A DNA stretch of 64,000 nucleotides from Halobacteriales archaeon QS_1_68_20 (GTDB taxonomy: Archaea > Halobacteriota > Halobacteria > Halobacteriales > PXRE01): positions 66,559 to 130,558 of the forward strand of contig PXRE01000026.1 in the NCBI GenBank assembly GCA_003021085.1, given 5' to 3'. Positions within the stretch are counted from its first letter, which is position 1. The number at the start of each line of letters is the position of its first letter. The position numbers were made by a program, and so were the translations under genes. Shown one piece after another: positions 1 through 60,686 of this stretch. The notes beneath the pieces were generated by a model. That model saw nothing but the letters and a program-made list of their open reading frames with translations, was not told the DNA's origin and ran no database searches.

Positions 1-776
1 TCGTACGCTTCGCCGTAGGCGTCCGCGACGGCCGCAAGGTCGTCGCGCTCCGCACTGGTCAGCGCCGGCAGCGCCACCGTGGCCCGCGGATCCATGAGGT
101 TGGAGACGTTCTGGACGGTCTCCTCCAGGTAGCCCTCTCGCGGCCCGCCGACGGCGACCTGGTGGGCCTTCGCGTACCGGCTGCCGTCGAAGATGCGCGC
201 CCGGCCCGGGTCGACGACCGCGACGGCGTCGAACTCGACGGTCCGGATGGGCAAGGCCACGTCGCCGTAGGACTCCACGACCGCGGGATCGGTCGCCCGG
301 ACGGGTTCGGTCAGCCCCCGGATCGCCTGGAGGTGGTGTCGCTCCATCACCGCGTTGGCCTCCTCCAGCGAGTCGACGACGAGCGCGTCCGCCAGCGGGA
401 GGTGCTCGCGGGCGTGGTCGGGGAGGGCCGCGCGACCGTTGACCACGAAGTCGTCGCCCACGCGGTCGACCAGGAACTCCCGGTCGGCGCGGCCGAGCAG
501 TCCCGACCCGCCGCCGGGCGCGGGCCGCCAGAGTCTGTGGACGGGATTGATGGCCTCGGGTTCGTGGTCGCCCGCGCTCGCGTCGACGAGGCGCTTCGCG
601 TCCTTGCCGTACAGTCGGCCGTCCTCGACGGCGGCGTGGTAGTCGTCGTGGTCGTACCAGTAGTCGTTGCCAGCGCGGGGCTTGAAGCCGACGCCGTCGA
701 CTCGATCGAGGAGGCCGACCGAGAACGTCGTCTTGCCGGCGTCGACCGTCGCGCCGCCTGCGACCAGCAGGTTCAT
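1..776 (-). CDS. P-loop ATPase/GTPase-like protein (N-terminal part; gene runs off the window start)
   Basis: Absent from the ORF track because there is no stop inside the window. My minus-strand translation from the ATG at 776-774 gives MNLLVAGGATVDAGKTTFSVGLLDRVDGVGFKPRAGNDYWYDHDDY..., with a Walker-A-like G-x4-GKT. The frame stays open to nt 1 and the composition is acidic. Confidence 0.65.
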   Translation of the reverse strand, partial: MNLLVAGGATVDAGKTTFSVGLLDRVDGVGFKPRAGNDYWYDHDDYHAAVEDGRLYGKDAKRLVDASAGDHEPEAINPVHRLWRPAPGGGSGLLGRADREFLVDRVGDDFVVNGRAALPDHAREHLPLADALVVDSLEEANAVMERHHLQAIRGLTEPVRATDPAVVESYGDVALPIRTVEFDAVAVVDPGRARIFDGSRYAKAHQVAVGGPREGYLEETVQNVSNLMDPRATVALPALTSAERDDLAAVADAYGEAY

Positions 777-777
777 G

Positions 778-1044
778 CTACGTCTTCAGGCCGTAGTAGC
801 CGGGTTCGTCGTCGGCCTGCGGTTCGGCCACCACGAGGTCGTCGGCGTTGAACACGATCCAGGGGATGGCCCAGTCCAGCAGGACGTTCTCGGTCTCGGG
901 GTCCAGTTCCGCGTCGGGGTCCAGTTCCTGGAGCAACCGGGCGATCTCGTAGACGGTGTACATCTCGTCGGGGTCGAGCAACTCCTCGGGCGCGTAGAAG
1001 TCACAGGGGTGAATCTGGTCGAACGAGGACTTCGCTCGGGGCAT
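778..1044 (-). CDS. small acidic hypothetical protein (88 aa)
   Basis: Track ORF MPRAKSSFDQIHPCDFYAPEELLDPDEMY... has haloarchaeal acidic composition. Its stop lies 1 nt from the start of the downstream P-loop gene, so they are probably co-transcribed. Confidence 0.55.
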   Translation of the reverse strand: MPRAKSSFDQIHPCDFYAPEELLDPDEMYTVYEIARLLQELDPDAELDPETENVLLDWAIPWIVFNADDLVVAEPQADDEPGYYGLKT

Positions 1045-1149
1045 GACGGAGGGTACGGGTGACCGGCGGGTAAATCATCCGATTCGCGCAGGGTTTCGGT
1101 CCGGACGAAGCCGATAGTTACTTTGGACGATGCACTCATTCGTTCATCA

Positions 1150-2826
1150 ATGGCGACGCCGCTCAAAATCGCCTACGCAGGGTTCCTACTGACCGGCATG
1201 TCGCTTGCTGGCGTTTTCGGGACCGTAGCGTGGCGGCGGCGGCCGTCGCGCGAGGCGACCGCGCTGGTCGTCCTCGCGGCCGGCATCGTCCTCTGGCTGG
1301 TGGGAACGACGGCGAGTCTGTTCGTCGACCCCCTGTCGGCCAGGGTGTTCGCGCAGAAGTTCTCGTACTTCGGCATCGTCTCCACGACGCCGGCGTTCCT
1401 GGTGTTGACGCTCCTGTACACCGGCCGCGAGGCGTGGGTCGACCGACGACTCTTGGGCGTCCTCTCGGTCGAACCCGTGGTCTTCCTGATCGGGCTGTGG
1501 ACGACCCCGGAACTGGTGTACGAGTCGGTCTCGGTCACCGGTTCGTCGCTGGCGTTCGACGTGGTGCACGGACCGCTGTTCTGGGTCCACGTCGTCTACG
1601 CGTACGTGCTGACGCTGATCGCGACCGCGCTGCTACTGGAGTTTCTCTACCGCACGCAGTACCTCTACACCAAACAGGTACTGGCGCTCCTGACGGCGGT
1701 GGCTGCCCCCTGGTTCGGGAACATGCTCTACCTCGGCGGGGCCGTCCCGTTCGACCCCACGCCCATCACGTTCGCCGTCAGCGGCACGGTGCTTACCTGG
1801 GCCGTCCTCGAAGCGGGCTTCGTCGACCTGTCGCCCATCGCCCGCGAGGCGGTCGTCGACCACGTCAACCACGGGATGCTCGTGGTCGACGAGGAGGGGC
1901 GACTCATCGACCTCAACCCGACGGGCAAGGCGATGCTCGACGCCGACGACGACATCGGGCGGCCGCTGGCGGAACTGCTCACCGACTACCCCCAACTCGT
2001 CGAGGAGTTCGCCGACGCCCACGAGAAACGCGAGAATGTGCTTCTCGACACCCCCGAGGGGCGGCGGGTGTTCGACATCGAGGTGACTCCGTTGACCGAC
2101 TACCGCGACCGCCTGCAGGGTCGGCTGTTCCTCATCCAGGACGTGACCGAACGGTGGCAGCGCGAGCAGGAACTCCAGCGACAGAACGAGCAACTTGACC
2201 GGTTCGCCTCCGTCGTCAGCCACGACCTCCGGAACCCGCTGAACGTCCTCGACGGGTACGTCGAACTCGCCCGCGAGTCCGGGGACACGGAACCGCTGGA
2301 CGCCGCCGCCGAGAGCATCGACCGGATGTACCAGCTCATCGACGACGTCCTGTCGCTGGCCCGCGAGGGCCGCCAGATCGAGTCCAGGGAACCGGTCGAA
2401 CTCCGTGCGGTCGCCCGAGACGCGTGGGCGAACCTGGAGACCACGGAGGCCACCCTCATCGTCGTCGACGACCGGACCCTCCACGCCGACCGGTCGCGAC
2501 TGGTCCAGGCGCTGGAGAACCTCTTCTGTAACGCCGTCGAGCACGGCGGCCCGGGCGTGACCGTCGAGGTCGGGACGAGCGACGACGAGCGTGGCTTCTA
2601 CGTCCAGGACGACGGTCCGGGCATCCCCCCGGACGAGCACGACGACGTGTTCGAGTACGGTTACACCACGACCGACGAGGGGACGGGGCTGGGGCTGGCC
2701 ATCGCCGACGCCATCGCGGAGGCCCACGGCTGGGAACTCCGACTGGAGGACGGTAGCACCGGAGCCAGGTTCGAGTTCCGGGACGCCAACGTCAAACGGG
2801 ACGACTCCGTCGTTCTCGCGGAGTAG
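1150..2826 (+). CDS. sensor histidine kinase (N-terminal multi-TM domain, PAS-like, HisKA, HATPase_c)
   Basis: Carries the H-box FASVVSHDLRNPLN, G-boxes DDGPGIP and GTGLGLAI, and an N-terminal hydrophobic 6-7 helix region. The first ATG is at 1150; the track ORF starts at a TTG at 1123. Confidence 0.9.
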   Translation: MATPLKIAYAGFLLTGMSLAGVFGTVAWRRRPSREATALVVLAAGIVLWLVGTTASLFVDPLSARVFAQKFSYFGIVSTTPAFLVLTLLYTGREAWVDRRLLGVLSVEPVVFLIGLWTTPELVYESVSVTGSSLAFDVVHGPLFWVHVVYAYVLTLIATALLLEFLYRTQYLYTKQVLALLTAVAAPWFGNMLYLGGAVPFDPTPITFAVSGTVLTWAVLEAGFVDLSPIAREAVVDHVNHGMLVVDEEGRLIDLNPTGKAMLDADDDIGRPLAELLTDYPQLVEEFADAHEKRENVLLDTPEGRRVFDIEVTPLTDYRDRLQGRLFLIQDVTERWQREQELQRQNEQLDRFASVVSHDLRNPLNVLDGYVELARESGDTEPLDAAAESIDRMYQLIDDVLSLAREGRQIESREPVELRAVARDAWANLETTEATLIVVDDRTLHADRSRLVQALENLFCNAVEHGGPGVTVEVGTSDDERGFYVQDDGPGIPPDEHDDVFEYGYTTTDEGTGLGLAIADAIAEAHGWELRLEDGSTGARFEFRDANVKRDDSVVLAE

Positions 2827-2936
2827 CGTGGCCGGCCGGGCACGACGGCGACCCGTCGGCGGCCGCCGGACGGTCGGCTACCGGTCGGGAACACGAAAAA
2901 TCGAAACTCGACTCGGCGCTCTCCGGGAGCGGCGAT

Positions 2937-3551
2937 TCAACCCTCGTGGTTGTTGACCGTCTTCCGGTACTGGTCGGCGGCCTCGCCCCAGTCGACGACC
3001 TCGAAGAAGGCGTCGATGAAGCTGCCGCGGTCCGGGCCGTAGTCGTAGTAGTAAGAGTGCTCCCAGACGTCCAGCGCCAGGATGGGGTGAGAGCCCCACA
3101 GCGCACCCTGGTCGTGCTTGTCGACGACGAGGTTGCGGAGCTGCTTGGCGACGGGGTCGTAGACGAGCAGCGCCCAGCCACCGGCCTCCTTGGCGGCGGC
3201 CTCGAACTCGCCCTTCCAGCCCTCGTAGGAGCCGAAGTCCTCCTCGATGCGGTCCCGAAGTTCGCCCTCGGGCTCGCCCCCGCCGTTCGGCGACATCACG
3301 TTCCAGAACAGGGTGTGCAGGTAGTGGCCACAGCCGTTGTGGGTGACGTTGCGGATGGCGGAGCCGCTACTGCCGAAGTCGCCCGACTCGCGGTTCTCCG
3401 CGAGGGTCTCCTCGGCGCTGTTGAGACCGTTGACGTACCCCTGGTGGTGGGTGTCGTGGTGCCAGGTCAGCACCTGCTCGCTGATGTGGGGCGCGAGCGC
3501 GTCGTAGTCGTACGGCAGGTCCGGAAGCTTGGCGTCGGAGTACTCTCCCAT
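2937..3551 (-). CDS. sod: Mn/Fe superoxide dismutase
   Basis: MGEYSDAKLPDLPYDYDALAPHISEQVLTWHHDTHHQGYV...DVWEHSYYYDYGPDRG shows canonical Fe/Mn-SOD metal-ligand motifs. The track ORF (to 3950) is an upstream extension; the ATG is at 3551-3549. Confidence 0.95.
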   Translation of the reverse strand: MGEYSDAKLPDLPYDYDALAPHISEQVLTWHHDTHHQGYVNGLNSAEETLAENRESGDFGSSGSAIRNVTHNGCGHYLHTLFWNVMSPNGGGEPEGELRDRIEEDFGSYEGWKGEFEAAAKEAGGWALLVYDPVAKQLRNLVVDKHDQGALWGSHPILALDVWEHSYYYDYGPDRGSFIDAFFEVVDWGEAADQYRKTVNNHEG

Positions 3552-6014: not shown

Positions 6015-6935
6015 ATGCAGACGCACGTCGTCCCGGTCGGGTTCGACTACGACCGGCTGATCGCGCCGCTGGTCCGCGAGAAACTGGACGTCGACCGGGC
6101 GATCCTGCTGGAGGGGGCGGTCGGGAGCGAGGCCAACGTCGAGTACTCCCGGCGCATCGCCCGCAAACTGGAACAGGACTTCCGGAACCTGCTCGGCGCG
6201 GAGACCGAACGCGTCGTGGTTGAGGACGTCTACGACTACGACGCCGCCTTCGAGCAGGCGTTCGACCTCATCAACGCGGAACTGGACCGCGGCGGGGCGG
6301 GCGAGGACGCCACGGACGAGGACCCCGGCGAGGTGTGGGTCAACGTTAGCGCGATGCCCCGGACCGTCTCGTTCGCGTTCGCCACCGCCGCCCACTCGAT
6401 CATGGTCGAGCTGGAGGCCGACCGCGACCGCATCCACACATACTACACGGCCCCCGAGAAGTACCTGGAGACCGAACTCGCCGAGGAACTGCGCGCGATG
6501 GTCGGCCTGCTGGCCGACGTCCGGGACGGCGACGTCGACGCCGACGCCGTCGACGAGCACCTGGCGACGGCCCAGGACCTGCTCGCGGAGTTCGACGAGC
6601 GGGGGACGACCGTCGGAGCGAAGGAGATCGACGGGAGCCACGTCGTCGAGTTCCCGGTTGCGTCCTTCCAGAACGTCGACCCCTTCGAGGAACTGATCCT
6701 CTACAAACTCGGCGAGGACGGCGAGTTCGACTCCGTCTCGGACCTGGCGAAGGCGCTGGCCGCGGACCTCGACGAGGAGTACACCGACTCGTTCCGCTCG
6801 AAGGTCATCTACAACGTCGACAGATTGGGCCCGGGCGGCAAGGGTTACGTCGAACAGGACGCCCACGGCAAGTCCCACCGGACCCGGCTCTCGCGGATCG
6901 GTGAACTCTGGGTGCGCGCTCACGGGGACGAGTGA
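6015..6935 (+). CDS. putative transcriptional regulator, HFX_2341/DUF6293-like (Csa3/CARF-like Rossmann N-domain plus C-terminal winged helix)
   Basis: The N-terminus MQTHVVPVGFDYDRLIAPL... resembles the Csa3-type N-domain. The C-terminal ELILYKLGEDGEFDSVSDLAKAL...SKVIYNVDRL looks wHTH-like. The family name is from memory. Confidence 0.6.
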   Translation: MQTHVVPVGFDYDRLIAPLVREKLDVDRAILLEGAVGSEANVEYSRRIARKLEQDFRNLLGAETERVVVEDVYDYDAAFEQAFDLINAELDRGGAGEDATDEDPGEVWVNVSAMPRTVSFAFATAAHSIMVELEADRDRIHTYYTAPEKYLETELAEELRAMVGLLADVRDGDVDADAVDEHLATAQDLLAEFDERGTTVGAKEIDGSHVVEFPVASFQNVDPFEELILYKLGEDGEFDSVSDLAKALAADLDEEYTDSFRSKVIYNVDRLGPGGKGYVEQDAHGKSHRTRLSRIGELWVRAHGDE

Positions 6936-6959
6936 ATTGGGACGTAGCGTGTTGAGGAC

Positions 6960-7330
6960 GTTAGAGTCGTGGCGCACGCGAGCAAGGCGCGCGAGGTCTC
7001 CGCGAGTCTTGCGAGCGGAGGCTCGGGAGAGCTTGCTCTCCCGGTGGCCGGGGGAAGCGCGGCGTCTCCGGCGAGCCGTGCGAGCCGGAGGCTCGTCAGC
7101 GCTTACCTCTGACGGTGGCCCAGCGGGTCGGCCACCGCGCCGAGTCCCGCGGTTGGGGAGGGTGGGGTTGACCCCTAGGTGTTGCGTGCCGCTAGCGTTG
7201 CCCGTTCGAACCGTGAACACTAGCGACCACTTGACCTAGGGATATCCACGCCCTCCCCAACCGATTGCGCTCCTCGCTTCGCTCCGGTGCTCATCCCTCG
7301 CGCGCGGCAACCGCAACGTGGCAGGTTGGG
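6960..7330. repeat. intergenic composite repeat, locus A (contains a 115-bp inverted-repeat unit at 7149-7263)
   Basis: GGTTGGGGAGGG at 7150-7161 and its reverse complement CCCTCCCCAACC at 7251-7262 flank a direct repeat TTGACC(C)CTAGG. The right half (7247-7312) is the reverse complement of the module upstream of CGGCTGGGGAGG in locus D. Small hairpins lie at 7025-7042 and 7114-7136. Confidence 0.7.
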
Positions 7331-7374
7331 CTGAACGAACCAACCGAAGTAAAACGAAGCCGAAGTTCAGGTCG

Positions 7375-10101
7375 TCATTTCTCGATCCCCGGCGCCTCGT
7401 CACCGATGACGTCCATCACGCGGTCGTGGAACTCCTGCAGGACGGCGCTCTCGTCGCTGGCCAGCACCACGTCAGTCGCCATCAGCGTCGCCAGGCCGAA
7501 CGCCCGCGGCGACGGCGACTCGACCCGCTGGGCACGCACCTCGATGTCGCCGGCCTGGATGCCGGCCAGCACCTCCTCGATGCCGGCGACGTTCAGTTTG
7601 TCCTCCAGGATCTCGCGGTAGGTCTCCTCCAGCACCGCGAAGTCATCCAGGTCCTCGGCGAATCCCAGCAACATCTCGCTGGAGACCTGTTGCTCGCTGG
7701 CGGACTTCTCGTAGCCCTTGTACCGCTTGAGGATCATCAGCGACCGGGTCGCGTCGATCCGGAAGTACCGCTGGAGCAGGTCGGTCCCCTCGATGGCCGC
7801 CCGGAGTTTCTCCCGGACCGAGTCGGGGTCCAGGTCCGCGACGATGCCCTCCACGTCGACCTTGCGGTTCAGCGGCATCGAGATGGAGAAGCCGTGGTCC
7901 GCGACGGCGACGGCGACGTTGGCGTCGGTCGCCTGCGCGCACTCGTGGGCGACGATGCGCGAGAGGCCGTCGTTGAACCGCCGGCCGTAGTTCGAGTGGA
8001 CGTAGTACCGGCGCTTGTACTCGTCGCGGTCCAGTTCCTCCTCGATGGCGAGGCGGCCGGCCGTGCTGACGCTCTCTGCGCCCGCGTACCGCACCTGCTG
8101 GTCGAACAGGCGGGCGAGCGCCCGGACGCCGTTGTCGTCCAGCGGGAACTCCCGGAGCCACGCCCGGACGGCGGGACGGCCGCCCTCCTGCAGGCGTTCG
8201 ACGAGTTCACCCTGGAACTGGAGGATCTCACGGCCGAGGTCGTACGACAGCGGCAGGCGCTCGGAGTACCACGAGGGGACGGTCGGCCGGGCGCTCGTGC
8301 GGTCGACGTACACCTTCGACCCGCGGCGGTAGCGGTACTCGAAGCGGTTCCCGCCGAGGACGAACACGTCGCCGGACTCGAGGGTGTCCAGGTACTCCTC
8401 GTCGAGCTGGCCGACCCACTCGTCGTCCACGCGGGTGAACACGTCGCAGGTGAACGAGTCGGGGATGGTCCCGATGTTGGTCATATAGATGACCCGCGCG
8501 AGGCGGCCGCGTTTACCGATCAGCGGCTGGCCGACCTCGAACTCGTCGTAGTGGTACTCGCCGTCCGGCGGGTCGTTGGCGTCACGCCAGATCTTCGCGT
8601 AGACGTTGTTGTCCTCCATGCCGTCGTAGTCGGCGGTGAGATAGCGCAGCAACTGCTCCCACTCGTCGTCGCCGTAGTCGCGGTAGGGGTAGGCCCGCCT
8701 GAGGATGTCCTCGATTTCGGCCTCCGGGCGGGGGCCGTTGATCGCCATCCCGTAGACGTGCTGGGCGGCGACGTCATGGGCGTTCTCCGGGACGAACACC
8801 CGGTCGACGAACCCCTCCTCGGCCTTCTTCAGCATGACCGCGCACTCGACGAGTTCGTCGCGGTCGAGCGCGAACACCCGGCCGGTGACGGTCTCGCCGA
8901 GCTGGTGGCCCGCCCGGCCGACGCGCTGGAGGAGCGCGGCGACCGATTTGGGGGAGCCGACCTGCACCACTAGGTCGACAGTCGGCATGTCGATGCCGAG
9001 TTCGAGACTGGTGGAGGTGGTGACCACGTCGACGGTGCCGTCCTTGAGTCGGCGCTCGACGTCCTCGCGGTCGGCCTTCGAGAGACTGCCGTGGTGGCAC
9101 GAGGAGTTCGCCTCCTCGTACGCCGAGAAGCGTTCGCGGAGGTTGTGTAGGACGCGCTCCGCGCCCGAGCGCGTGTTGGTGAACACGATGGTCGTCGTGT
9201 GATCCTGAATCTCGTCGTGGAGGGTCTCGTAGAACCGCTCGTTGCTCACGTCGTGGGGCGTGTTCACGAGGTCGGCCGCCGGCGTCACGAGTTCGACGTC
9301 GAACTCCCGGACGAACCGCGTGTCGACGATTTCGCAATCGCGGGATGGACCACCGGGGCCGTTCCGGCCGACCAGGAACTCGGCCATCCCCTCCAGGGGT
9401 TCGACGGTCGCGGAGCACCCGATCCGGGTCGGCGACCCCTCTGCGAGGTGCTGGAGGCGTTCGAGGCTGACCGCGAGGTGGGTACCGCGCTTGCTCTCCG
9501 CGAGGGCGTGAATCTCGTCGACGACCACGTACTCGACGGTCCGCAACTTCTCGCGGAACTTCGGCGAATTGAGGAGGATGGCCAGCGTCTCCGGCGTGGT
9601 GTTGAGGATGTGCGGCGTCTCCTCCAGCATCGCCTGCCGTTCGCTGGAGTCGGTGTCGCCGTGCCGGATCGCGTGCCGGATCTCCACCTCGCCGTCGGTC
9701 CGTTCGGAGATGCCCGCCAGGGGCCGTTCGAGGTTCCGGTGGATGTCGTTGGCCAGCGACTTCAGCGGGGAGACGTACAGGCAGTACACCGAGTTGTCGA
9801 GTCCCTCCTCGCTGTCGCGGCGGTAGAGTTCGTTGATGATCGAGGTGAACGACGCGAGCGTCTTGCCGGACCCCGTCGGGGCCGCGACCAGGGCGTTGGT
9901 CCCCTCCTGGACCAGGGGGATGGCCTCCTCCTGGGGCGGCGTGAAGAAGCCCTCGTTCTCTTCGACGAACGCTCCGAACTGGTCGACCCACCACTCCTGG
10001 AGGGGGGGTTCCAGCAACTCCAGGACGTCGCCGTCGGTGATCGTCGCCGCCTCTGCGTCGACGCCAGTCTCGGCCGCGGCCAACAGTTCCCTCGGTCCCA
10101 T
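7375..10101 (-). CDS. lhr: Lhr-type superfamily-2 ATP-dependent helicase (DEAD/DEAH box)
   Basis: Carries the motifs AAPTGSGKT, VVDEIHAL and SATV, plus the long Lhr-like C-terminal winged-helix/domain-4 region. The start is taken at MGPRELLAAAETG (ATG 10101); the track ORF extends spuriously to 10335. Confidence 0.9.
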   Translation of the reverse strand: MGPRELLAAAETGVDAEAATITDGDVLELLEPPLQEWWVDQFGAFVEENEGFFTPPQEEAIPLVQEGTNALVAAPTGSGKTLASFTSIINELYRRDSEEGLDNSVYCLYVSPLKSLANDIHRNLERPLAGISERTDGEVEIRHAIRHGDTDSSERQAMLEETPHILNTTPETLAILLNSPKFREKLRTVEYVVVDEIHALAESKRGTHLAVSLERLQHLAEGSPTRIGCSATVEPLEGMAEFLVGRNGPGGPSRDCEIVDTRFVREFDVELVTPAADLVNTPHDVSNERFYETLHDEIQDHTTTIVFTNTRSGAERVLHNLRERFSAYEEANSSCHHGSLSKADREDVERRLKDGTVDVVTTSTSLELGIDMPTVDLVVQVGSPKSVAALLQRVGRAGHQLGETVTGRVFALDRDELVECAVMLKKAEEGFVDRVFVPENAHDVAAQHVYGMAINGPRPEAEIEDILRRAYPYRDYGDDEWEQLLRYLTADYDGMEDNNVYAKIWRDANDPPDGEYHYDEFEVGQPLIGKRGRLARVIYMTNIGTIPDSFTCDVFTRVDDEWVGQLDEEYLDTLESGDVFVLGGNRFEYRYRRGSKVYVDRTSARPTVPSWYSERLPLSYDLGREILQFQGELVERLQEGGRPAVRAWLREFPLDDNGVRALARLFDQQVRYAGAESVSTAGRLAIEEELDRDEYKRRYYVHSNYGRRFNDGLSRIVAHECAQATDANVAVAVADHGFSISMPLNRKVDVEGIVADLDPDSVREKLRAAIEGTDLLQRYFRIDATRSLMILKRYKGYEKSASEQQVSSEMLLGFAEDLDDFAVLEETYREILEDKLNVAGIEEVLAGIQAGDIEVRAQRVESPSPRAFGLATLMATDVVLASDESAVLQEFHDRVMDVIGDEAPGIEK

Positions 10102-10193
10102 CTGGGCGCGCGTTAGAGTCGGAGGTGTAAGTGTATTCCCCCACCGGAGCGGAAGTGAACCGGCCGCCGCGAACCGCCTCCGATTCGTACCGC

Positions 10194-10718
10194 TCAGGCC
10201 AGCGATTCCAGGAGCGCGAGCAGTTCCGTCTCGGTCGCGTTGCCGGACGCCACGGCGTCTCTGGGCCGTCGACCGGTCGATTCGACCGTCTCGATTGTCC
10301 CCTCGGGGTCGTAACCGCGGGCGTGGACCAGCCACGCGGCGAGGACGTGACCCGTCCGCCCGATGCCGGCGAGGCAGTGGGTCACGACGGGTTCCCCCTG
10401 CTCGTCGGCCGTCTCGAAGAACGGTAGCACCTCGTCGGTCAGCGTCTCCCGCGCGGCGAGGTGGTGGTCCGGGACGGGCGCGTGCAGGACCTGCTCGCGG
10501 CCGAACGCCCGCTGGTACTGTCCGACCAGGTCACCGTACCGTTCCAGTTGTCGCTCCGAGAGGAGACAGCAGACTCGCTGGACGCCGCGCTCTCTCATGG
10601 CGGCGATCCAGTCGTCGACGGCGGCCGTCGGGTCCAGGCGGCCGAACCCGGGTGCGGCCGCGCCGTGGACCACTTCCTCCCCGGGCGCGGCCGGCGCGAA
10701 TCTGTCGCCTCGGCTCAC
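10194..10718 (-). CDS. dual-specificity protein phosphatase family protein
   Basis: Carries the catalytic P-loop HCLAGIGRTG (HCx5R[ST]); 174 aa. Confidence 0.85.
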   Translation of the reverse strand: MSRGDRFAPAAPGEEVVHGAAAPGFGRLDPTAAVDDWIAAMRERGVQRVCCLLSERQLERYGDLVGQYQRAFGREQVLHAPVPDHHLAARETLTDEVLPFFETADEQGEPVVTHCLAGIGRTGHVLAAWLVHARGYDPEGTIETVESTGRRPRDAVASGNATETELLALLESLA

Positions 10719-10835
10719 GGTCTCCTGACACGCCCGCCACCTACATCTCCGTTTCGGCGGTCATCCACTACTCCGCGCTCGGCCCACTGGTCCGGAAACC
10801 CGGTCGCTGACCGGTCCGTCCGTCCGCCGCGGCGC

Positions 10836-11146
10836 GCGCTGGTGAGCGTGCCGAGCAACGCGAGGCCGCGAACCAGAGGCGCGCGAGGGACGAGTAACGC
10901 AAGGAGCGCTCGGAGAGCGCGACTGAGTAACGCAGTCGGCTGGGGAGGCGTGTGGCGATGCGCGGTTGGACCGGGTGGGACTGAAAGGGGCCGCGCGCTG
11001 GACGACGGCGGGCGACGTAAGCACCGCAACGGAGTGAGGAGCGCAGCGAGCCCCCCGAGTCGAGCGCGCGGGGGCTTTCTGCGTGTTGCTGTCCAGGATT
11101 CCGTCGACTGTGAGCGCGCGGGGGCTTTCTGGGCGGTGACGGTCAA
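10836..11146 (+). repeat. intergenic composite repeat, locus B (full-length exemplar)
   Basis: Modules are CGGCTGGGGAGGCGTGTGG (10937-10955), GGGTGGGACTGAAAGGGGCCGCGCGCTGGACGACG (10973-11007), and two copies of GAGCGCGCGGGGGCTTTCTG (11062-11081, 11112-11131). All recur at 26.0, 32.7 and 60.5 kb. Confidence 0.85.
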
Positions 11147-25971: not shown

Positions 25972-26043
25972 CGGCCTACAATGGCCGCCTCGCGCCGATA
26001 AGCGTGTCGGAGGCTGGTCGTCCTCGGAGGCCGGTCGTCTGCC

Positions 26044-26336
26044 CCGGCGCGCTCGTGGGTGTGCCGAGTAACGCAGTCGGCTGGGGAGGTGTGCGGTTGC
26101 GGCTCGCGGGGCGGGACTGAAAGGGGCCGCGCGCTGGACGACGCCCGGCGACGTTCCCGCGAACGAACGTGAGCGGGAGCCAGCGAGAGCGTCGCTCTCG
26201 CGCGGTAAGCACCGCAGCGAAGGGAGGAGCGCAGCGAGCCGCGCGAGTCGACCCCGCGGGGGCTTTCTACGCGTTGCCGTCCAGGCCACCACCGACAGCG
26301 AGCGCGCGGAGGCTTTCCGCGTGTTGCCGTCCGAGC
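26044..26336 (+). repeat. intergenic composite repeat, locus C
   Basis: CGGCTGGGGAGGTGTGCGG (26078-26096), GGGACTGAAAGGGGCCGCGCGCTGGACGACG (26113-26143), and two CGCGG(G/A)GGCTTTC motifs (about 26255 and 26304). It carries a ~50-nt insertion with the palindrome CGAGAGCGTCGCTCTCG (26184-26200). Confidence 0.85.
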
Positions 26337-32632: not shown

Positions 32633-32682
32633 CCGACGCAGAGTCGATTACCCGGGGGGGCGACCGCGGGCCAACACCGTGC

Positions 32683-32956
32683 GAGGGATGAGCACCGGAC
32701 GGAGCCAGGAGAGCCTGCGGCTCTCCTGGCGGATGAGGAGCGCAATCGGCTGGGGAGGCGTGTGGTTGCGGCTCGCGGGGTGGGACTGAAAGGGGCCGCG
32801 GGCTCGACGACGCCCGGCGACGTAAGCACCGGAAGGAGCGGAGCGACTGGGGGGCGCAGCGAGCCGCGCAAGTCGAGCGCGCGGGGGCTTTCTACGTGTT
32901 GTCGGTGAACGCACCGAATACAGTGAGCGCGCGGGCTTACCGTGCGCTACCGACCG
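32683..32956 (+). repeat. intergenic composite repeat, locus D
   Basis: GAGGAGCGCAATCGGCTGGGGAGGCGTGTGG (to 32765), GGGACTGAAAGGGGCCGCGGGCTCGACGACG (32782-32812), GAGCGCGCGGGGGCTTTCT (32875-32893), and a degenerate second copy (32925-32938). Confidence 0.85.
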
Positions 32957-40046: not shown

Positions 40047-41096
40047 ATGGGAGAACGGCTAGGCTCGCGCCGTTCGCGGGCGGCGTGGTGGACGTTCGGC
40101 GCCGTCCTCGGACTCGTGGTGCTGTTCGTCGTGTTCGAGTTCCTGGGGACGTTCGTCTTCGGGGTATTCCTGTACTACGCGACCCGGCCGGTCGCGGAAC
40201 TCCGGGACCTCTCGGAGACGGTCGACCTGGGGCCGCTGGCGGACCTCGTCGGGGAGTACCCGGACCTTTCGGGCATCGCCGCCAGCCCCGGGGAGCTGAT
40301 ACAGAACGGCGGCGCGGACGTCGTCCTGGGCATCGCGAGTTCTGCGACGGGTTTCCTGGGCCTGTTCGGCCTGTTCGCGCTGCACCTGTTCGTGATGTTC
40401 GCGGTCGCATTCTACCTGCTCCGGGACGACCACCGCCTCTCGTCGTGGATCGGGACGAACCTCAGCGACGACCCCGGCGTCCTCGACGCCTACCTCGACG
40501 CCGTCGACGAGGACCTCCACAGCATCTTCTTCGGGAACATCCTCAACGCCGCCATCACGGGAACCATCGGCGCGATCACGTACAGTCTTCTCAACCTGTT
40601 CGCTTCGCCCGGCCTGTCGGTTCCGTACGCCGTGCTGGTCGGCCTGCTGACGGGCGTCGCCAGCCTGATCCCCATCGTCGGCATGAAACTGGTGTACGTT
40701 CCCGTGAGCGTGTACCTGTTCGCGCGACTCATCCCGGACCTGGTCCTGCGGCCCTACATCTCCGGGCGGAACCTCCACGTCGGCATGGTGATGATGGCGT
40801 ACGTGCTCGGGCCCCTGCTGTTCGGGTGGTACGGCATCTTCCTCGCGCCGCTGTTGCTGGTGCTGGCGTTCCACTTCGCCCGGATCATCTTGCCGGAACT
40901 CGTGGCCGGCGACCCGATCACGCCGGGCGTGACCGGCAGACCGACGGTAGAGGCCGGCCCCGACGGACCGGCCGGTGCGACGGTCGCCGACGCCGGCACC
41001 GGGGAGCCAGCGGACGGCACCACGACCGACGGCGGGGGCGACGACCCGGCGAACGAGGACGGCGAATCGGCCGAGGACGCCAGCGACGGTGAGTGA
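40047..41096 (+). CDS. AI-2E (PerM/UPF0118) family transporter with acidic C-terminal tail
   Basis: LHLFVMFAVAFYLLRDDHRL..., IPIVGMKLVYVPV and PDLVLRPYISGRNLHVG...LFGWYGIFLAPLLL are family-typical. Confidence 0.75.
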   Translation: MGERLGSRRSRAAWWTFGAVLGLVVLFVVFEFLGTFVFGVFLYYATRPVAELRDLSETVDLGPLADLVGEYPDLSGIAASPGELIQNGGADVVLGIASSATGFLGLFGLFALHLFVMFAVAFYLLRDDHRLSSWIGTNLSDDPGVLDAYLDAVDEDLHSIFFGNILNAAITGTIGAITYSLLNLFASPGLSVPYAVLVGLLTGVASLIPIVGMKLVYVPVSVYLFARLIPDLVLRPYISGRNLHVGMVMMAYVLGPLLFGWYGIFLAPLLLVLAFHFARIILPELVAGDPITPGVTGRPTVEAGPDGPAGATVADAGTGEPADGTTTDGGGDDPANEDGESAEDASDGE

Positions 41097-41161
41097 GCGG
41101 GCACGGACCAGTAGCTGACCGGAGGCCCACGGGAGTAGCTACGGGGCGGCTGATCTGGCGA

Positions 41162-41437
41162 CTACGCGTCGACGTACTGGCCTTCCCAGTCGCGGCGAGC
41201 GTTGATCTCGCGGTCTCCACGCCGGGTCAGCGTGTAGTAGTTGGTCCGGCGGTCACGCTGGCCTTTCTCGACCAGCCCCTTGTCGACGAGCGTATCCAGG
41301 TTCGGGTACAGACGACCGTGATGAATCTCTTTCTCGTAATAATCCTCCAACTCTTCCTTGATCGCAAGACCGTGGGGTTCCTCCTTACCAGCGATGACGT
41401 ATAGCAAGTCTCGCTGAAATCCTGTCAAGTCGTACAT
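41162..41437 (-). CDS. PadR-family transcriptional regulator (91 aa)
   Basis: MYDLTGFQRDLLYVIAGKEEPHGLAIKEELEDYYEKEIHHGRLYPNLDTLVDKGLVEKGQRDRRTNYYTLT matches the PadR wHTH pattern. ATG at 41437. Confidence 0.85.
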   Translation of the reverse strand: MYDLTGFQRDLLYVIAGKEEPHGLAIKEELEDYYEKEIHHGRLYPNLDTLVDKGLVEKGQRDRRTNYYTLTRRGDREINARRDWEGQYVDA

Positions 41438-41804
41438 TGGGAACGTCCACGGAATACTTTGTGTCGGCTCGAAATAAATTTGATGGAACGATCTTGCGAT
41501 CCTGGCGCAAAACGCCACCGGACGTGGCGATATCGAGATATACGAATTGGTAATCAGATTGGTATTCGACGACACCGGGTCCATTCATTCTACATTCATA
41601 TATTTTTTCGTATGAACGTTCATGCTCTATCAACCGAATTAACACCGATTCGAAGCGGTCGCCCGTTACCCGGATCCATCCGCTGAACCGTTTCGCTCGA
41701 CGGTGGTACCCGACGCTGTAGTGGCCTGGCCGGCGCCGCTCCGGCTGTTCCAGTCCGTGGACGGTGTAGGTGATGCCGCTGGTCGTAGTCGTCAGGTACG
41801 CCAC
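41385..41804 (-). CDS. hypothetical protein (139 aa) in a low-GC segment
   Basis: Track ORF MAYLTTTTSGITYTVHGLEQPERRRPGHYSVGYHRRAKRFSGWIRVTGDRFESVLIRLIEHERSYEKIYE... Its composition is atypical (basic, lower GC) and it overlaps the PadR start by ~50 nt. Confidence 0.3.
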   Translation of the reverse strand: MAYLTTTTSGITYTVHGLEQPERRRPGHYSVGYHRRAKRFSGWIRVTGDRFESVLIRLIEHERSYEKIYECRMNGPGVVEYQSDYQFVYLDIATSGGVLRQDRKIVPSNLFRADTKYSVDVPNVRLDRISARLAIRHRW

Positions 41805-41870
41805 ACACTGCTGGGCGAAGTACCGATCACGTGGAGACGTGGCGACCGCTCACGGGTCGATGCCAAAAGG

Positions 41871-41973
41871 AAGCGATGATACGCGGGAAGATCCCGCGTA
41901 ATCGCTTGCCGCCCTGATTTGGTCCCCGCTGACGCTTCGGCCCTCCAAGCGAAGCGTCACCTGAATAGTCAGG
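41871..41973 (-). other. three consecutive stem-loops (possible 3' UTR/terminator structure or small RNA)
   Basis: AAGCGAT..ACGCGGGA-aga-TCCCGCGT.ATCGCTT (41871-41907), GACGCTTCG-10 nt-CGAAGCGTC (41931-41958), and CCTGA-atag-TCAGG (41960-41973). Confidence 0.3.
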
Positions 41974-42048
41974 AGGAAGGAACTTAATAGTTTCGGCAGT
42001 CGGCGGTGGAGCGGGTCGGCCGGACCGCGAACGACCCTGGCGGCCGGT

Positions 42049-60396: not shown

Positions 60397-60485
60397 GTTT
60401 CCCCCGGGGCCGGCCGCCCGCAAAAACCTTCGGCTCGGGGGGCAACGGCCGCAGTCGTTCGCTCTGATTCGACGATCCACCGCCG

Positions 60486-60686
60486 GCGCGCGCTGGTGAG
60501 CGTGTCGCCGCAGGCGACCGCGAACCAACGGCGCGCGAGTCGGCTGGGGAGGCTGGTGGTTTGCCCGAGCTGTGGGTGGGACTGAAAGGGGCCACGCGAG
60601 TCGAGCGCGCGGGGGCTTTCTGGGCGGTGCTGACCAGGCAACCGCCGACAGAGAGCGCGCGGGGGCTTTCTGCGTGTTTCGGACCG
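60486..60686 (+). repeat. intergenic composite repeat, locus E (shortest version)
   Basis: CGGCTGGGGAGGCTGGTGG (60541-60559), GGGTGGGACTGAAAGGGGCCACGCG (60574-60598) fused directly to GAGCGCGCGGGGGCTTTCTG (60603-60622), and a second copy at 60653-60672. Confidence 0.85.

Follow-up and report, generated by a model that had tools for sequence, protein, structure and literature searches.

The 114-bp imperfect palindrome at positions 7150-7263 of the window, the 64,000-nt stretch of contig PXRE01000026.1 from Halobacteriales archaeon QS_1_68_20 analysed here, is probably the module that supplies the long hairpin in a family of mosaic palindromic repeats, non-coding and intergenic, of Halobacteria; the family is analogous to the REP, BIME, REPIN, ERIC or BOX elements of bacteria. 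Many copies of the hairpin exist, all of them intergenic and each a module in a fixed context; its outer arms are near-invariant around an interior that varies and still pairs, and some copies have been retained at orthologous sites across genera. The family is apparently undescribed; full-text literature searches, including the literal strings of the core motif, the terminal 26-mer and module 2, returned no description of it.

Could such a palindrome arise by chance in GC-rich intergenic DNA? The initial annotation had recognised its 12-nt inverted arms, which are exact reverse complements separated by 88 nt (the left arm had been placed 1 nt too low), and had also correctly seen a direct repeat inside the unit (TTGACCCCTAGG at 7168-7179 and TTGACCTAGG at 7231-7240). 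A 12-nt perfect inverted repeat alone is unexceptional here: the window is 68% GC and contains 19 inverted pairs of at least 12 nt within 130 nt. However, pairing is not limited to the arms but runs through the whole unit. Arm complementarity reaches 25 nt at 80%, and in a self-blast the unit matches itself at 74% over 116 nt. The forward strand of the element is the minus strand of the window, and its predicted RNA minimum free energy is -73.2 kcal/mol (z -8.0), compared with -66.7 kcal/mol (z -6.0) for the plus strand; folding with DNA parameters gives z-scores of -5.3 and -5.2. The observed fold energy was matched by none of the shuffles. The core motif GGYTGGGGAGG occurs exactly six times in the window, in the two arms and, as initially described, once in a single orientation at each of four other loci; the shuffling expectation is 0.10, and six was never reached in 100 trials. 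With homologous copies present by the dozen in other genomes, the shuffle folds, core counts and recurrence rule out a chance palindrome, to which we give practically no weight. No Rfam family was matched at gathering threshold anywhere in the window, and by E-value only mir-4891 appeared, a generic hairpin match of 28.3 bits against a gathering score of 100. Scans for tRNA and tmRNA found nothing, nor did a scan of 6700-7600 for sigma-70 promoters and intrinsic terminators, which is of little relevance for archaea.

Table 1. Window coordinates of the composite repeat (locus A), its parts, its neighbours and the related loci B-E.
Feature	Position	Strand	Remarks
Whole composite, ~338 bp	6971..7308	-	Between convergent genes; MFE -191.5 kcal/mol, z -5.6; related-MAG loci match 6970-7306 at 70-80% over ~300 nt
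Right terminal inverted repeat GGCGCACGCGAGCAAGGCGCGCGAGG	6971..6996	+	Two mismatches against the family 26-mer GGCGCGCGCGAGCAACGCGCGCGAGG; pairs with 7296-7305
Two tandem ~69-bp units of small GC-rich hairpins	6989..7120	-	Include GGGAGAGCTTGCTCTCCC (7025-7042), CGTCAGCGCTTACCTCTGACGG (7094-7115) and GCGAGC(C)GGAGGCTCG motifs
Small hairpin GGTGGCC-CAGCGGGTC-GGCCACC	7114..7136	-	Module after the long hairpin; family consensus CCGCGGGGTTGGGCCGGCG..
Long imperfect palindrome	7150..7263	-	Outer stem GGTTGGGGAGGG / CCCTCCCCAACC; CCTAGG stems 7174-7179 and 7235-7240; apex TTCGAA 7205-7210; fold z -5 to -8 and homologous copies
Arm GGTTGGGGAGGG	7151..7162	+	3' arm on the element's forward strand; direct reading
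Arm CCCTCCCCAACC	7251..7262	+	Minus-strand reading is the family core GGTTGGGGAGGG, with TCGG before it
Left linker of composite	7264..7289	-	Minus strand GAGCACCGGAGCGAAGCGAGGAGCGCAA-T; GAG(T/G)A(A/G)CGCA(G/A) in all copies
Left terminal inverted repeat, inner half	7290..7308	-	Minus strand GCCGCGCGCGAGGGATGAG; exact GCGCGCGAGGGATGAG at 7290-7305
HFX_2341-like gene	6015-6935	+	One flank of composite, convergent
Lhr helicase gene	7375-10335	-	Other flank of composite, convergent; T4 run at ~7343-7349 (minus strand), ahead of the element
Locus B, sister architecture	10829..11135	+	Left module and core (10938-10948) shared with locus A; the long hairpin that follows is another one (module 2) and has GAGCGCGCGGGGGCTTTCT twice
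Locus C, sister architecture	26000..26330	+	Core 26079-26089
Locus D, sister architecture	32677..32935	+	Core 32748-32758; left flank is the nearest match to locus A
Locus E, shortened sister architecture	60483..60675	+	Core 60542-60552

The long hairpin belongs to a composite in which GC-rich hairpins follow one another between 26-bp terminal inverted repeats; the left one of these repeats has a degenerate outer half in the window copy (Table 1). The GC-rich sub-repeat GCGAGC(C)GGAGGCTCG does occur twice, as the initial annotation had it, and both copies are carried by a tandem duplication (6989-7049 against 7057-7120, 80% identity); the two small perfect hairpins that it listed beside the unit are likewise present. 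The same hairpin modules are also found in a related MAG, in variable number. Loci B-E align with 7263-7310 read on the minus strand; they share the left module with locus A and carry another long hairpin. These loci are a separate, equally old architecture, present also in Halorussus, Halobaculum and the related MAG. The earlier proposal that they are solo ends or composite derivatives of the unit therefore holds in its second half better than in its first: they are not solo ends but a sister architecture.

Copies of the hairpin were sought with the pattern TCGGYTGGGGAGG-N75-105-CCTCCCCA, with both arms exact and, in the first scan, TCGG also demanded; in the source genome the copy number covers the 64-kb window. 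The related MAG, CAYTAG01, is the closest relative among the available genomes (90% identity in a flanking protein) and, fragmented as it is, contains 25 copies at 24 loci, all with the same paired ends around ~90 nt and with interiors 75-85% similar, plus one further copy with a variant arm. Fifteen more were found in 11 genomes of five genera, Natrinema, Haloterrigena, Natronorubrum, Saliphagus and Haladaptatus, and on one 987-kb replicon of Natrinema thermotolerans 10 places were matched by blastn. Further copies with the same paired ends, by which the initial annotation had proposed to judge its element, thus do exist. A paired-arm scan of viral contigs gave three matches, all unrelated. 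Several hairpin copies of the related MAG lie at or beside contig ends, two of them adjoining poly-G/C and N runs, and the small ORFs that hairpin copies create may be mis-annotated.

In every copy the context outside the arms is the same: GAGTAACGCAG-TCGG on the left, and on the right one of a few alternative modules or a mirror copy. The hairpin base has TCGG before it and CCGA or CCGC after it in all copies. The left flank is conserved for ~100 nt, out to the 26-mer, a mirror of which stands at the opposite end, and the long hairpin keeps a constant slot directly after the GAGNANCGCAR-TCGG linker. The true ends of the composites, which measure 248-335 bp, are the 26-bp inverted repeats ~100-200 bp outside the hairpin arms, and the loci of the related MAG match window positions 6970-7306 as one block. 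Within this frame the module make-up differs from copy to copy; in the Natrialbaceae the copies carry the same motifs and are nearly symmetric, as palindromes of ~310 bp in which the left modules are mirrored. The flanks of whole composites differ between copies. Because only exact arms were accepted, and TCGG was a further requirement of the first scan, the apparent arm invariance and context constancy are inflated. A TCGG-free scan of the metagenome collection gave 57 loci, of which two were haloarchaeal and both lay in the usual context, a weak control given its restriction to metagenomes and just two haloarchaeal matches; the others were unrelated bacterial hairpin repeats sharing TGGGGAGG/CCTCCCCA by coincidence.

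The initial annotation suggested that the core may be the terminal inverted repeat of a small non-autonomous element; the corresponding model is a self-contained 115-bp MITE mobilised by a transposase in trans. There is something to be said for this: at least 40 copies have identical paired ends around ~90 nt, the size is typical, every copy is intergenic, and the arms are conserved around a variable interior. Terminal inverted repeats are found at both levels, as 12-nt perfect arms in the hairpin and as 26-bp repeats in the composite. However, the core does not terminate a self-contained element, since the sequence outside the arms is conserved and a second set of inverted repeats lies further out. 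For the same reason the hairpin does not land in new flanks, and no insertion of the 115-bp unit into unrelated flanks was seen, the flanks being conserved in 40/40 copies (in a main scan that required TCGG). The TCGG and CCGA beside the arms are inverted with respect to each other and so are part of the palindrome, not a direct duplication. Target-site duplications had been expected, but direct repeats flank neither the seven complete composites nor the window copy. The 115-bp unit is not an independently transposing MITE, and we regard the whole MITE scheme, including solo ends at the other core loci, as highly improbable, the scanned neighbours of the copies being housekeeping genes with no transposase among them, the supposed solo loci being a conserved alternative architecture, and copies being kept at orthologous sites across genera.

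The conserved synteny that the initial annotation had set against mobility is in fact seen at several sites. At the junction between the MBL and deoxyhypusine synthase genes three Natrinema species carry the element and Natronococcus has a half remnant; N. salifodinae and Halopiger lack it there, at sites that are both rearranged. Other orthologous sets are shared by Natronorubrum and Saliphagus, and by Natrinema and Haloterrigena. In the search for an empty site at the window locus, the HFX_2341-like orthologues of three relatives each precede a different gene, with downstream synteny broken, and tblastn of the genes flanking hairpins in the related MAG found no orthologous regions in the window. 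Seven of 10 neighbouring genes scanned have a Pfam match, all to housekeeping-type or DUF families; none of the 10 is a transposase, HUH/Y1 enzymes included, and no gene is enclosed by a 26-mer pair in ~136 kb of the related MAG. Among the copies and neighbours examined there was no fresh insertion, clean empty site or mobilising enzyme, so that the label "repeat element" is drawn solely from copy number and architecture.

Variation among the copies bears on the form in which the element acts. RNAalifold predicts 22 pairs, six of them with compensatory changes, and the Natrialbaceae interiors, which differ in sequence, mostly still fold (z about -3 to -5.6). Identity in diverged orthologous pairs is 83-94% for the arms, 66-83% for the interior and 78-86% for the coding flanks. 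Two close Natrinema pairs show a different order, the element being 95-97% identical, coding flanks 85-89% and neighbouring non-element intergenic DNA 78-87%, a pattern no less in keeping with selection for a function than with a selfish repeat; with only two of six orthologous pairs behaving in this way, it supports no general claim of purifying selection above that on coding flanks. The forward strand is the better folder in 17 of 23 asymmetric copies, and there are 47 G.U cells against 12 A.C cells. The inner segment reads as inverted between copies, in flip or flop orientation: the inner 56 nt of the window copy match those of another copy (L028) at 44/56 positions when inverted and at 36/56 directly, and the outer parts are collinear (26/28 and 26/29).

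One alternative is an element selected mainly as a cis-acting RNA structure, its repetitiveness being secondary. It might be a bidirectional read-through barrier or a 3'-end-protecting stem-loop between genes, or a small structured RNA, and the modelled fold is very stable. The excess of G.U over A.C on one strand together with the compensatory changes would suit such a role, as would the identity of the element in the two close species pairs and the symmetric Natrialbaceae versions, which would look alike from both directions. Gene arrangement points the same way: the 26 copies with both neighbours called comprise 13 in convergent, 10 in tandem and three in divergent arrangement, and the convergent class is enriched (13/26 against ~6.5 expected). 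Against this, no AT-rich box resembling a promoter lies within the hairpin or immediately ahead of it, no oligo-T follows it, the T4 run of the Lhr gene already precedes the element, and no Rfam family corresponds to it. Between tandem genes the better-folding strand is antisense in 5/5 asymmetric cases (from heuristic gene calls), which is at odds with a simple 3'-UTR role, and the occurrence of the inner segment in both orientations would not be tolerable for an RNA with a specific loop. We consider a mainly RNA-based function unlikely.

A double-stranded DNA site for a host protein is a further candidate. Here a nucleoid or recombination factor, for example, or a protein that recognises CTAG, of which the conserved orphan CTAG methyltransferase is one, would bind the two invariant arms as a pair of sites, and the CTAG-rich stems would be part of the signal. 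The arms are indeed near-invariant in sequence, beyond what mere complementarity demands, and CTAG, which is avoided in all haloarchaeal genomes and whose orphan methylase has a role that is still an open question (PMC6471742), is concentrated in the hairpins. Its density there is 20.2 per kb, against 0.335 per kb in the remainder of these loci; the hairpins make up 1.5% of the bases and hold 59 of the 125 CTAG sites, and in the window the hairpin holds four of 22. However, the enrichment is strong only in the QS_1_68_20/CAYTAG lineage; in Natrialbaceae it is ~10-fold on only five sites. The arm invariance is partly an artefact of the copy-finding method, the strand asymmetry of the wobble pairs argues for a single-stranded form, and no candidate protein was found. 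A site of this kind is improbable in our estimation.

How might a mosaic repeat of the REPIN type then be maintained? A trans-acting activity with the conserved arms or the terminal hairpins as its target may duplicate or maintain the composite in its entirety. The effective form would be single-stranded, either ssDNA or a transcript, with the forward strand as the active one, and the element would be tolerated or useful mainly downstream of genes, where a stem-loop of such high stability could stop read-through or shield the 3' ends of RNA. A more far-reaching version, which we put forward tentatively as one possibility, is that these are ancient, mostly vertically inherited long-hairpin mosaic repeats, the archaeal counterpart of REPINs and BIMEs, whose near-invariant arms are recognised by a dedicated enzyme or host factor that binds single-strand hairpins, and whose large share of the otherwise avoided CTAG sites in at least one lineage would tie the hairpins to the orphan CTAG methyltransferase. 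To our knowledge REP, BIME and REPIN repeats, textbook elements in bacteria, are essentially undescribed in archaea. The present family spans several haloarchaeal families with dozens of copies per genome, keeps its motifs over large evolutionary distances, and is absent from Rfam and from the searchable literature. Should it be a maintained system and not debris, archaea ought to have a protein that recognises a particular DNA or RNA hairpin, and the repeats would give access to the biology of transcript ends between convergent haloarchaeal genes and a concrete place to seek the function of CTAG methylation and avoidance in Halobacteria.

Several known systems with palindromic DNA were set aside. 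Origin-type ORB repeats would come with an AT-rich unwinding region and an orc gene, CRISPR repeats with an array and a retron msr/msd with an RT gene, none of which is present, and the ends here are true inverted repeats, not the like-oriented sub-terminal hairpins of IS200/IS605 PATEs. Integron attC sites are likewise imperfect palindromes, 57-141 bp long, with conserved ends and a conserved fold around an unconstrained interior. Recombination uses one specific strand of them in folded form, and they lie in cassette arrays beside an integrase. The copies described here are single and dispersed among housekeeping genes, not in arrays, and their common arm GGCTGGGG has no GTT and does not fit the GTTRRRY/RYYYAAC core sites. 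Also comparable are the bacterial ERIC/IRU, Correia (CREE) and BOX elements, which lie in intergenic regions that are transcribed. They are 100-150 bp long, either imperfectly palindromic or modular, with conserved ends and boxA/B/C-like modules, and can affect transcript ends and stability; ERIC and Correia show TA target duplications, classical MITE behaviour. The palindromic or modular build and conserved ends are shared with the present family, which differs from ERIC and Correia in that no target-site duplication is seen and the context is fixed; sequence similarity to any of these elements is not known. A general review is available (PMC3184786).

Closer to home, the transposase-free repeats of Haloquadratum walsbyi have been divided into MITEs, PATEs and SMRs, the SMRs having inverted terminal repeats unlike those of any transposon and no target duplication (PMC3119063). 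Compared by description, not by sequence, the SMRs are like the present composite, both being short non-coding haloarchaeal repeats. Unlike the H. walsbyi repeats, the present family is built of hairpin modules and occurs across several haloarchaeal families, not one genus, and several of its copies stand at orthologous sites, not as strain-specific insertions.

The comparison with REP, BIME and REPIN sequences goes furthest. The host here is archaeal, and the units are much longer, with hairpins of 105-130 nt and composites of 250-340 bp. The REP super-families of Di Nocera have been described with a GTAG or CGTC tag (PMC3733652), and measured against that account no copy has GTAG or CGTC at the stem base; no RAYT-type gene is among the 10 neighbouring genes scanned. 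The likenesses are extensive. Like REPs (PMC2817692, PMC3116915, bioRxiv 10.1101/2022.05.22.493013), the present repeats are GC-rich imperfect palindromes that occur only outside genes and many times in a genome, and by analogy they would be expected to act in single-stranded form. As with REPs, their inheritance appears to be mostly vertical with long persistence, and no target-site duplication is seen. Like BIMEs, they form mosaic composites with units in alternating orientation, inverted doublets of which fold into a long hairpin, and this long hairpin, like a REPIN, consists of two inverted conserved ends and a variable spacer.

What kind of element is the palindrome that lies in the 439-bp gap separating the two convergent genes of locus A? 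Every sequence feature recorded there by the initial annotation, which proposed a 115-bp MITE-like unit, is present, with the left arm shifted by 1 nt to 7151-7162. The 12-nt inverted repeat arms are merely the base of a far longer structure, an imperfect palindrome spanning all of 7150-7263 and centered on TTCGAA (7205-7210). Predicted RNA folding of this long hairpin gives -73.2 kcal/mol (z -8.0) for the minus strand and -66.7 kcal/mol (z -6.0) for the plus strand, and with DNA parameters z is approximately -5.3 and -5.2; Rfam holds no family matching the element. In this window of 68% GC the exact core GGYTGGGGAGG occurs six times against 0.10 expected, and a palindrome arisen by chance is barely credible. 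Elsewhere in the window, GC falls to 0.585 at 41001-42000, compared with about 0.68 in the remainder; this stretch could be foreign DNA or an AT-rich regulatory region.

A scan of a 185,579-species genome collection with the pattern TCGGYTGGGGAGG-N75-105-CCTCCCCA returned 65 loci. Those in Natrinema, Haloterrigena, Natronorubrum, Saliphagus and Haladaptatus number 15, and 24 (25 copies) belong to a single MAG, CAYTAG01 (GCA_964435625.1), the closest relative available (flanking protein 90% identical). The remainder are bacterial, with arms alike by chance or belonging to unrelated hairpin repeats. The same paired ends, on whose recurrence the initial annotation had staked its reading, are thus found again in the 25 CAYTAG01 copies, whose homology to the window copy is clear across the whole interior (consensus ..GTGGA.ATCCCTAG.CGTTGCGTGCCGCTAGCGTCGCTG.CTCCGACGTGA.TCGACGGCA.GCAACGCCTAGGG..). 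Because copies were found by exact-match patterns, arm invariance and constancy of context are exaggerated; a relaxed regular expression run over 397 kb of haloarchaeal sequence added only one real copy, again in the usual context. In Reyranella, Sphingomonas, Sphingomicrobium and Novosphingobium, the pattern scan picked up an alphaproteobacterial hairpin repeat that resembles the family in its arms but is unrelated to it (..cctccccagcTCGGCTGGGGAGGGG.ACCAT...GGT.CCCCTCCCCA..). Two more unrelated hairpin families occur in low-GC metagenome contigs. Poly-G/C tracts and N runs directly adjoin some hairpin copies (L033 420-520, L072 1930-2050, both loci from other genomes), and several copies lie at or beside contig ends of CAYTAG01; the repeat has probably misled the assembly at these places.

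The long hairpin is one part of a larger unit. Comparison with CAYTAG01 shows that 6971-7308 is a single composite repeat along its whole length. On the minus strand, 7263-7310 can be aligned to the left portions of the window's other four loci that bear the core, so that the family orientation at locus A is the minus strand. To the left of the arms, GAG(T/G)A(A/G)CGCA(G/A)-TCGG is conserved in every copy, extending approximately 100 nt to GGCGCGCGCGAGCAACGCGCGCGAGG (the left module). On the right the module varies among a few options (CCGCGGGGTTGGGCCGGCG.., GCCTCCTCG.., or the left module in mirror image), and this side terminates in the reverse complement of the left 26-mer. Complete composites are 248-335 bp long with unrelated flanks, and no target-site duplication, which the initial annotation had suggested looking for, was seen around them. 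The whole composite has a predicted fold of -191.5 kcal/mol (z -5.6) in which both terminal repeats pair together. Natrialbaceae copies arrange the same motifs (GGTGGCGCGCGCTG, GCGAGGGATGAGCGA, GAGCGAA-TCGGCTGGGGAGG) into a near-symmetric palindrome of about 310 bp. The initial annotation is thus confirmed in what it observed and upheld in part in how it read it: the paired ends recur in many copies, but conserved sequence outside the arms in every copy and composites showing no target-site duplication speak against a stand-alone MITE. Neither was a transposase found among ten neighboring genes scanned, of which the seven with Pfam matches are housekeeping-type or DUF families; that the hairpin moves as an independent MITE is very improbable.

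The four other loci had been read as solo ends or composite derivatives. They are not solo ends: they share the left module and core with locus A, followed by a different long hairpin of their own, a sister architecture that is also present in CAYTAG01 and in Halorussus and Halobaculum plasmids. By blastn, the sister hairpin occurs in 49 haloarchaeal plasmids from more than 20 genera, including Haloferax volcanii pHV4. It folds as a long hairpin followed by CUUUCU, shows compensatory changes in 13 of 19 predicted pairs, and has no Rfam entry.

Coordinates and members of the repeats and neighboring genes (composite parts in minus-strand order; L-numbers denote loci from other genomes)
Feature	Location	Strand	Sequence
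HFX_2341-like gene (306-aa protein)	6015-6935	+	
Lhr-type helicase gene	7375-10335	-	
Composite part 1, left terminal repeat, partly degenerate			GCCGCGCGCGAGGGATGAG
Composite part 2, linker			ends in GAGGAGCGCAA-TCGG
Composite part 3, long hairpin	7150-7263		
Composite part 4, short hairpin module	7114-7136		
Composite part 5, two tandem ~69-bp units of small hairpins	6989-7120		
Composite part 6, right terminal repeat	6971-6996 (plus strand)		CCTCGCGCGCCTTGCTCGCGTGCGCC
Sister-architecture loci in window	10829-11135, ~26000-26330, 32677-32935, 60483-60675	all +	
Sister long hairpin, ~110 nt			GGGACTGAAAGGGGCC...GCGGGGGCTTTCT; also given as GGGACTGAAAGGGGCCGCGCGCT...AGCGCGCGGGGGCTTTCT
Sister hairpin, Hfx. 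volcanii pHV4	L008 2496-2625 (pHV4 382895-383012)		
Close Natrinema pairs	L062 4416-4730 vs L134 3453-3761; L029 vs L070		
Alphaproteobacterial look-alike hairpin repeat	L030, L032, L040, L042, L047, L051, L055, L074		
Low-GC metagenome hairpin family	L080, L088, L091, L097, L103, L110, L118, L131, L133		cacTGGGGAGGGCGTGGCATCTTGCCCGCCC...GGGCGGGCAAGATGCCACGCCCTCCCCAgtg
Low-GC metagenome hairpin family	L078, L089, L093, L101, L122, L123, L125, L129, L130		ctggTGGGGAGGTGGTGGC...GTCCCTCCCCAtga

How has the element been maintained? The outer stem is nearly invariant and inner pairs vary with compensation (6 of 22 pairs). Natrialbaceae interiors are mostly unalignable to one another or to the window type; most nonetheless fold far better than shuffles. 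The inner segment, some 55 nt enclosed by the two CCTAGG sites, can face either way with respect to the asymmetric flanks: when the window copy is compared with L028 867-979, this segment matches at 44 of 56 positions inverted and 36 of 56 direct, the outer parts being collinear, and by a motif test several further copies are apparently 'flop' (both orientations among L015, L021, L024, L026, L036, L076). The behavior recalls flip/flop in hairpin loops. Copies sit at orthologous positions in different genera (Natronorubrum/Saliphagus, Natrinema/Haloterrigena) as well as in Natrinema species pairs. At the MBL-fold hydrolase/deoxyhypusine synthase junction, sampled independently of the repeat, N. 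zhouii, N. versiforme and N. amylolyticum carry the element, which is absent from N. salifodinae and Halopiger xanaduensis, where both sites are rearranged. In Natronococcus wangiae, this orthologous site (L137 3377-3555) retains the right half alone (..TTTCCACGCCCTCTCCAGCCGATTCGCTCG..CCAGCGCGCACC), a decayed remnant implying that insertion predates the Natrinema/Natronococcus split. In two close Natrinema pairs the element is 95-97% identical, compared with 85-89% for coding flanks and 78-87% for non-element intergenic DNA, an excess for which constraint, recent exchange or gene conversion could account. Among pairs that have diverged further, identity holds up better in the arms (83-94%) than in the interior (66-83%; coding flanks 78-86%). 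The pattern is one of age, mostly vertical inheritance and constraint at the ends, unlike that of a recently active transposon. In none of the three relatives compared with 6936-7374 (L002, L003 and L004) is the HFX_2341-like gene followed by the same gene as at locus A, and in L002 window segments are also rearranged (8185-11218 matches window 1-3035), so the window repeat sits on a synteny breakpoint.

Every copy is intergenic, and heuristic, GC3-based gene calls place the 26 copies with both neighbors callable in 13 convergent, 10 tandem and 3 divergent contexts, against about 6.5, 13 and 6.5 expected from random placement. Of 23 asymmetric copies, 17 fold better on the strand whose 5' end carries the left module, and the predicted pairs of that strand include 47 G.U versus 12 A.C cells; this asymmetry suggests a single-stranded form with a defined polarity, either transcript or ssDNA. 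A primarily RNA-level cis element is conceivable, if unlikely: in 5 of 5 asymmetric tandem cases the better-folding strand runs antisense to the genes beside it, and in the window Lhr already has a T4 run ahead of the element, which argues against a simple 3'-UTR role. A double-stranded protein-binding or CTAG-related site is improbable as the main explanation. All haloarchaeal genomes avoid CTAG, and an orphan methyltransferase that is widely conserved targets this motif (PMC6471742). In this lineage the hairpins are nevertheless strikingly CTAG-rich: the window has 22 CTAG sites versus 83 expected from shuffles, and four of the 22 lie in the long hairpin (7175-7239). Across CAYTAG01 and window loci, 59 of 125 sites fall in hairpins (in L013-L076) that make up 1.5% of bases, a density of 20.2 versus 0.335 per kb elsewhere. 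Both explanations are compatible with a repeat element, and we favor, with some reserve, a REP/BIME/REPIN-like mosaic repeat in which the palindrome is the long-hairpin module. The analysis establishes that the hairpin is present in many copies, sits in a fixed modular context, keeps its fold, has an inner segment in flip/flop orientations and persists at orthologous sites, and that the composite has true boundaries without target-site duplications. By inference, the duplicated unit would be the composite rather than the hairpin, its conserved arms and terminal hairpins might be recognized by a protein, and the element would be active when single-stranded and either tolerated or of use on the downstream side of genes, where it could hinder read-through or act as a barrier at 3' ends.

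Among known systems, the MITE class does not fit in its target-site duplications and independent flanks. The closest analogues by behavior are the bacterial REP/BIME/REPIN elements (PMC2817692, PMC3116915), which likewise are palindromic, extragenic, multi-copy and mosaic; the GTAG/CGTC tag is not found in the present element. A full-text literature search, including literal motifs, found no description of the family. Within haloarchaea, the closest likeness is to the 'SMR' repeats of Haloquadratum, transposase-free elements that carry ITRs, do not duplicate their target and are mobilized in an unknown way (PMC3119063). The family is real, apparently undescribed, and best placed among the prokaryotic palindromic mosaic repeats.
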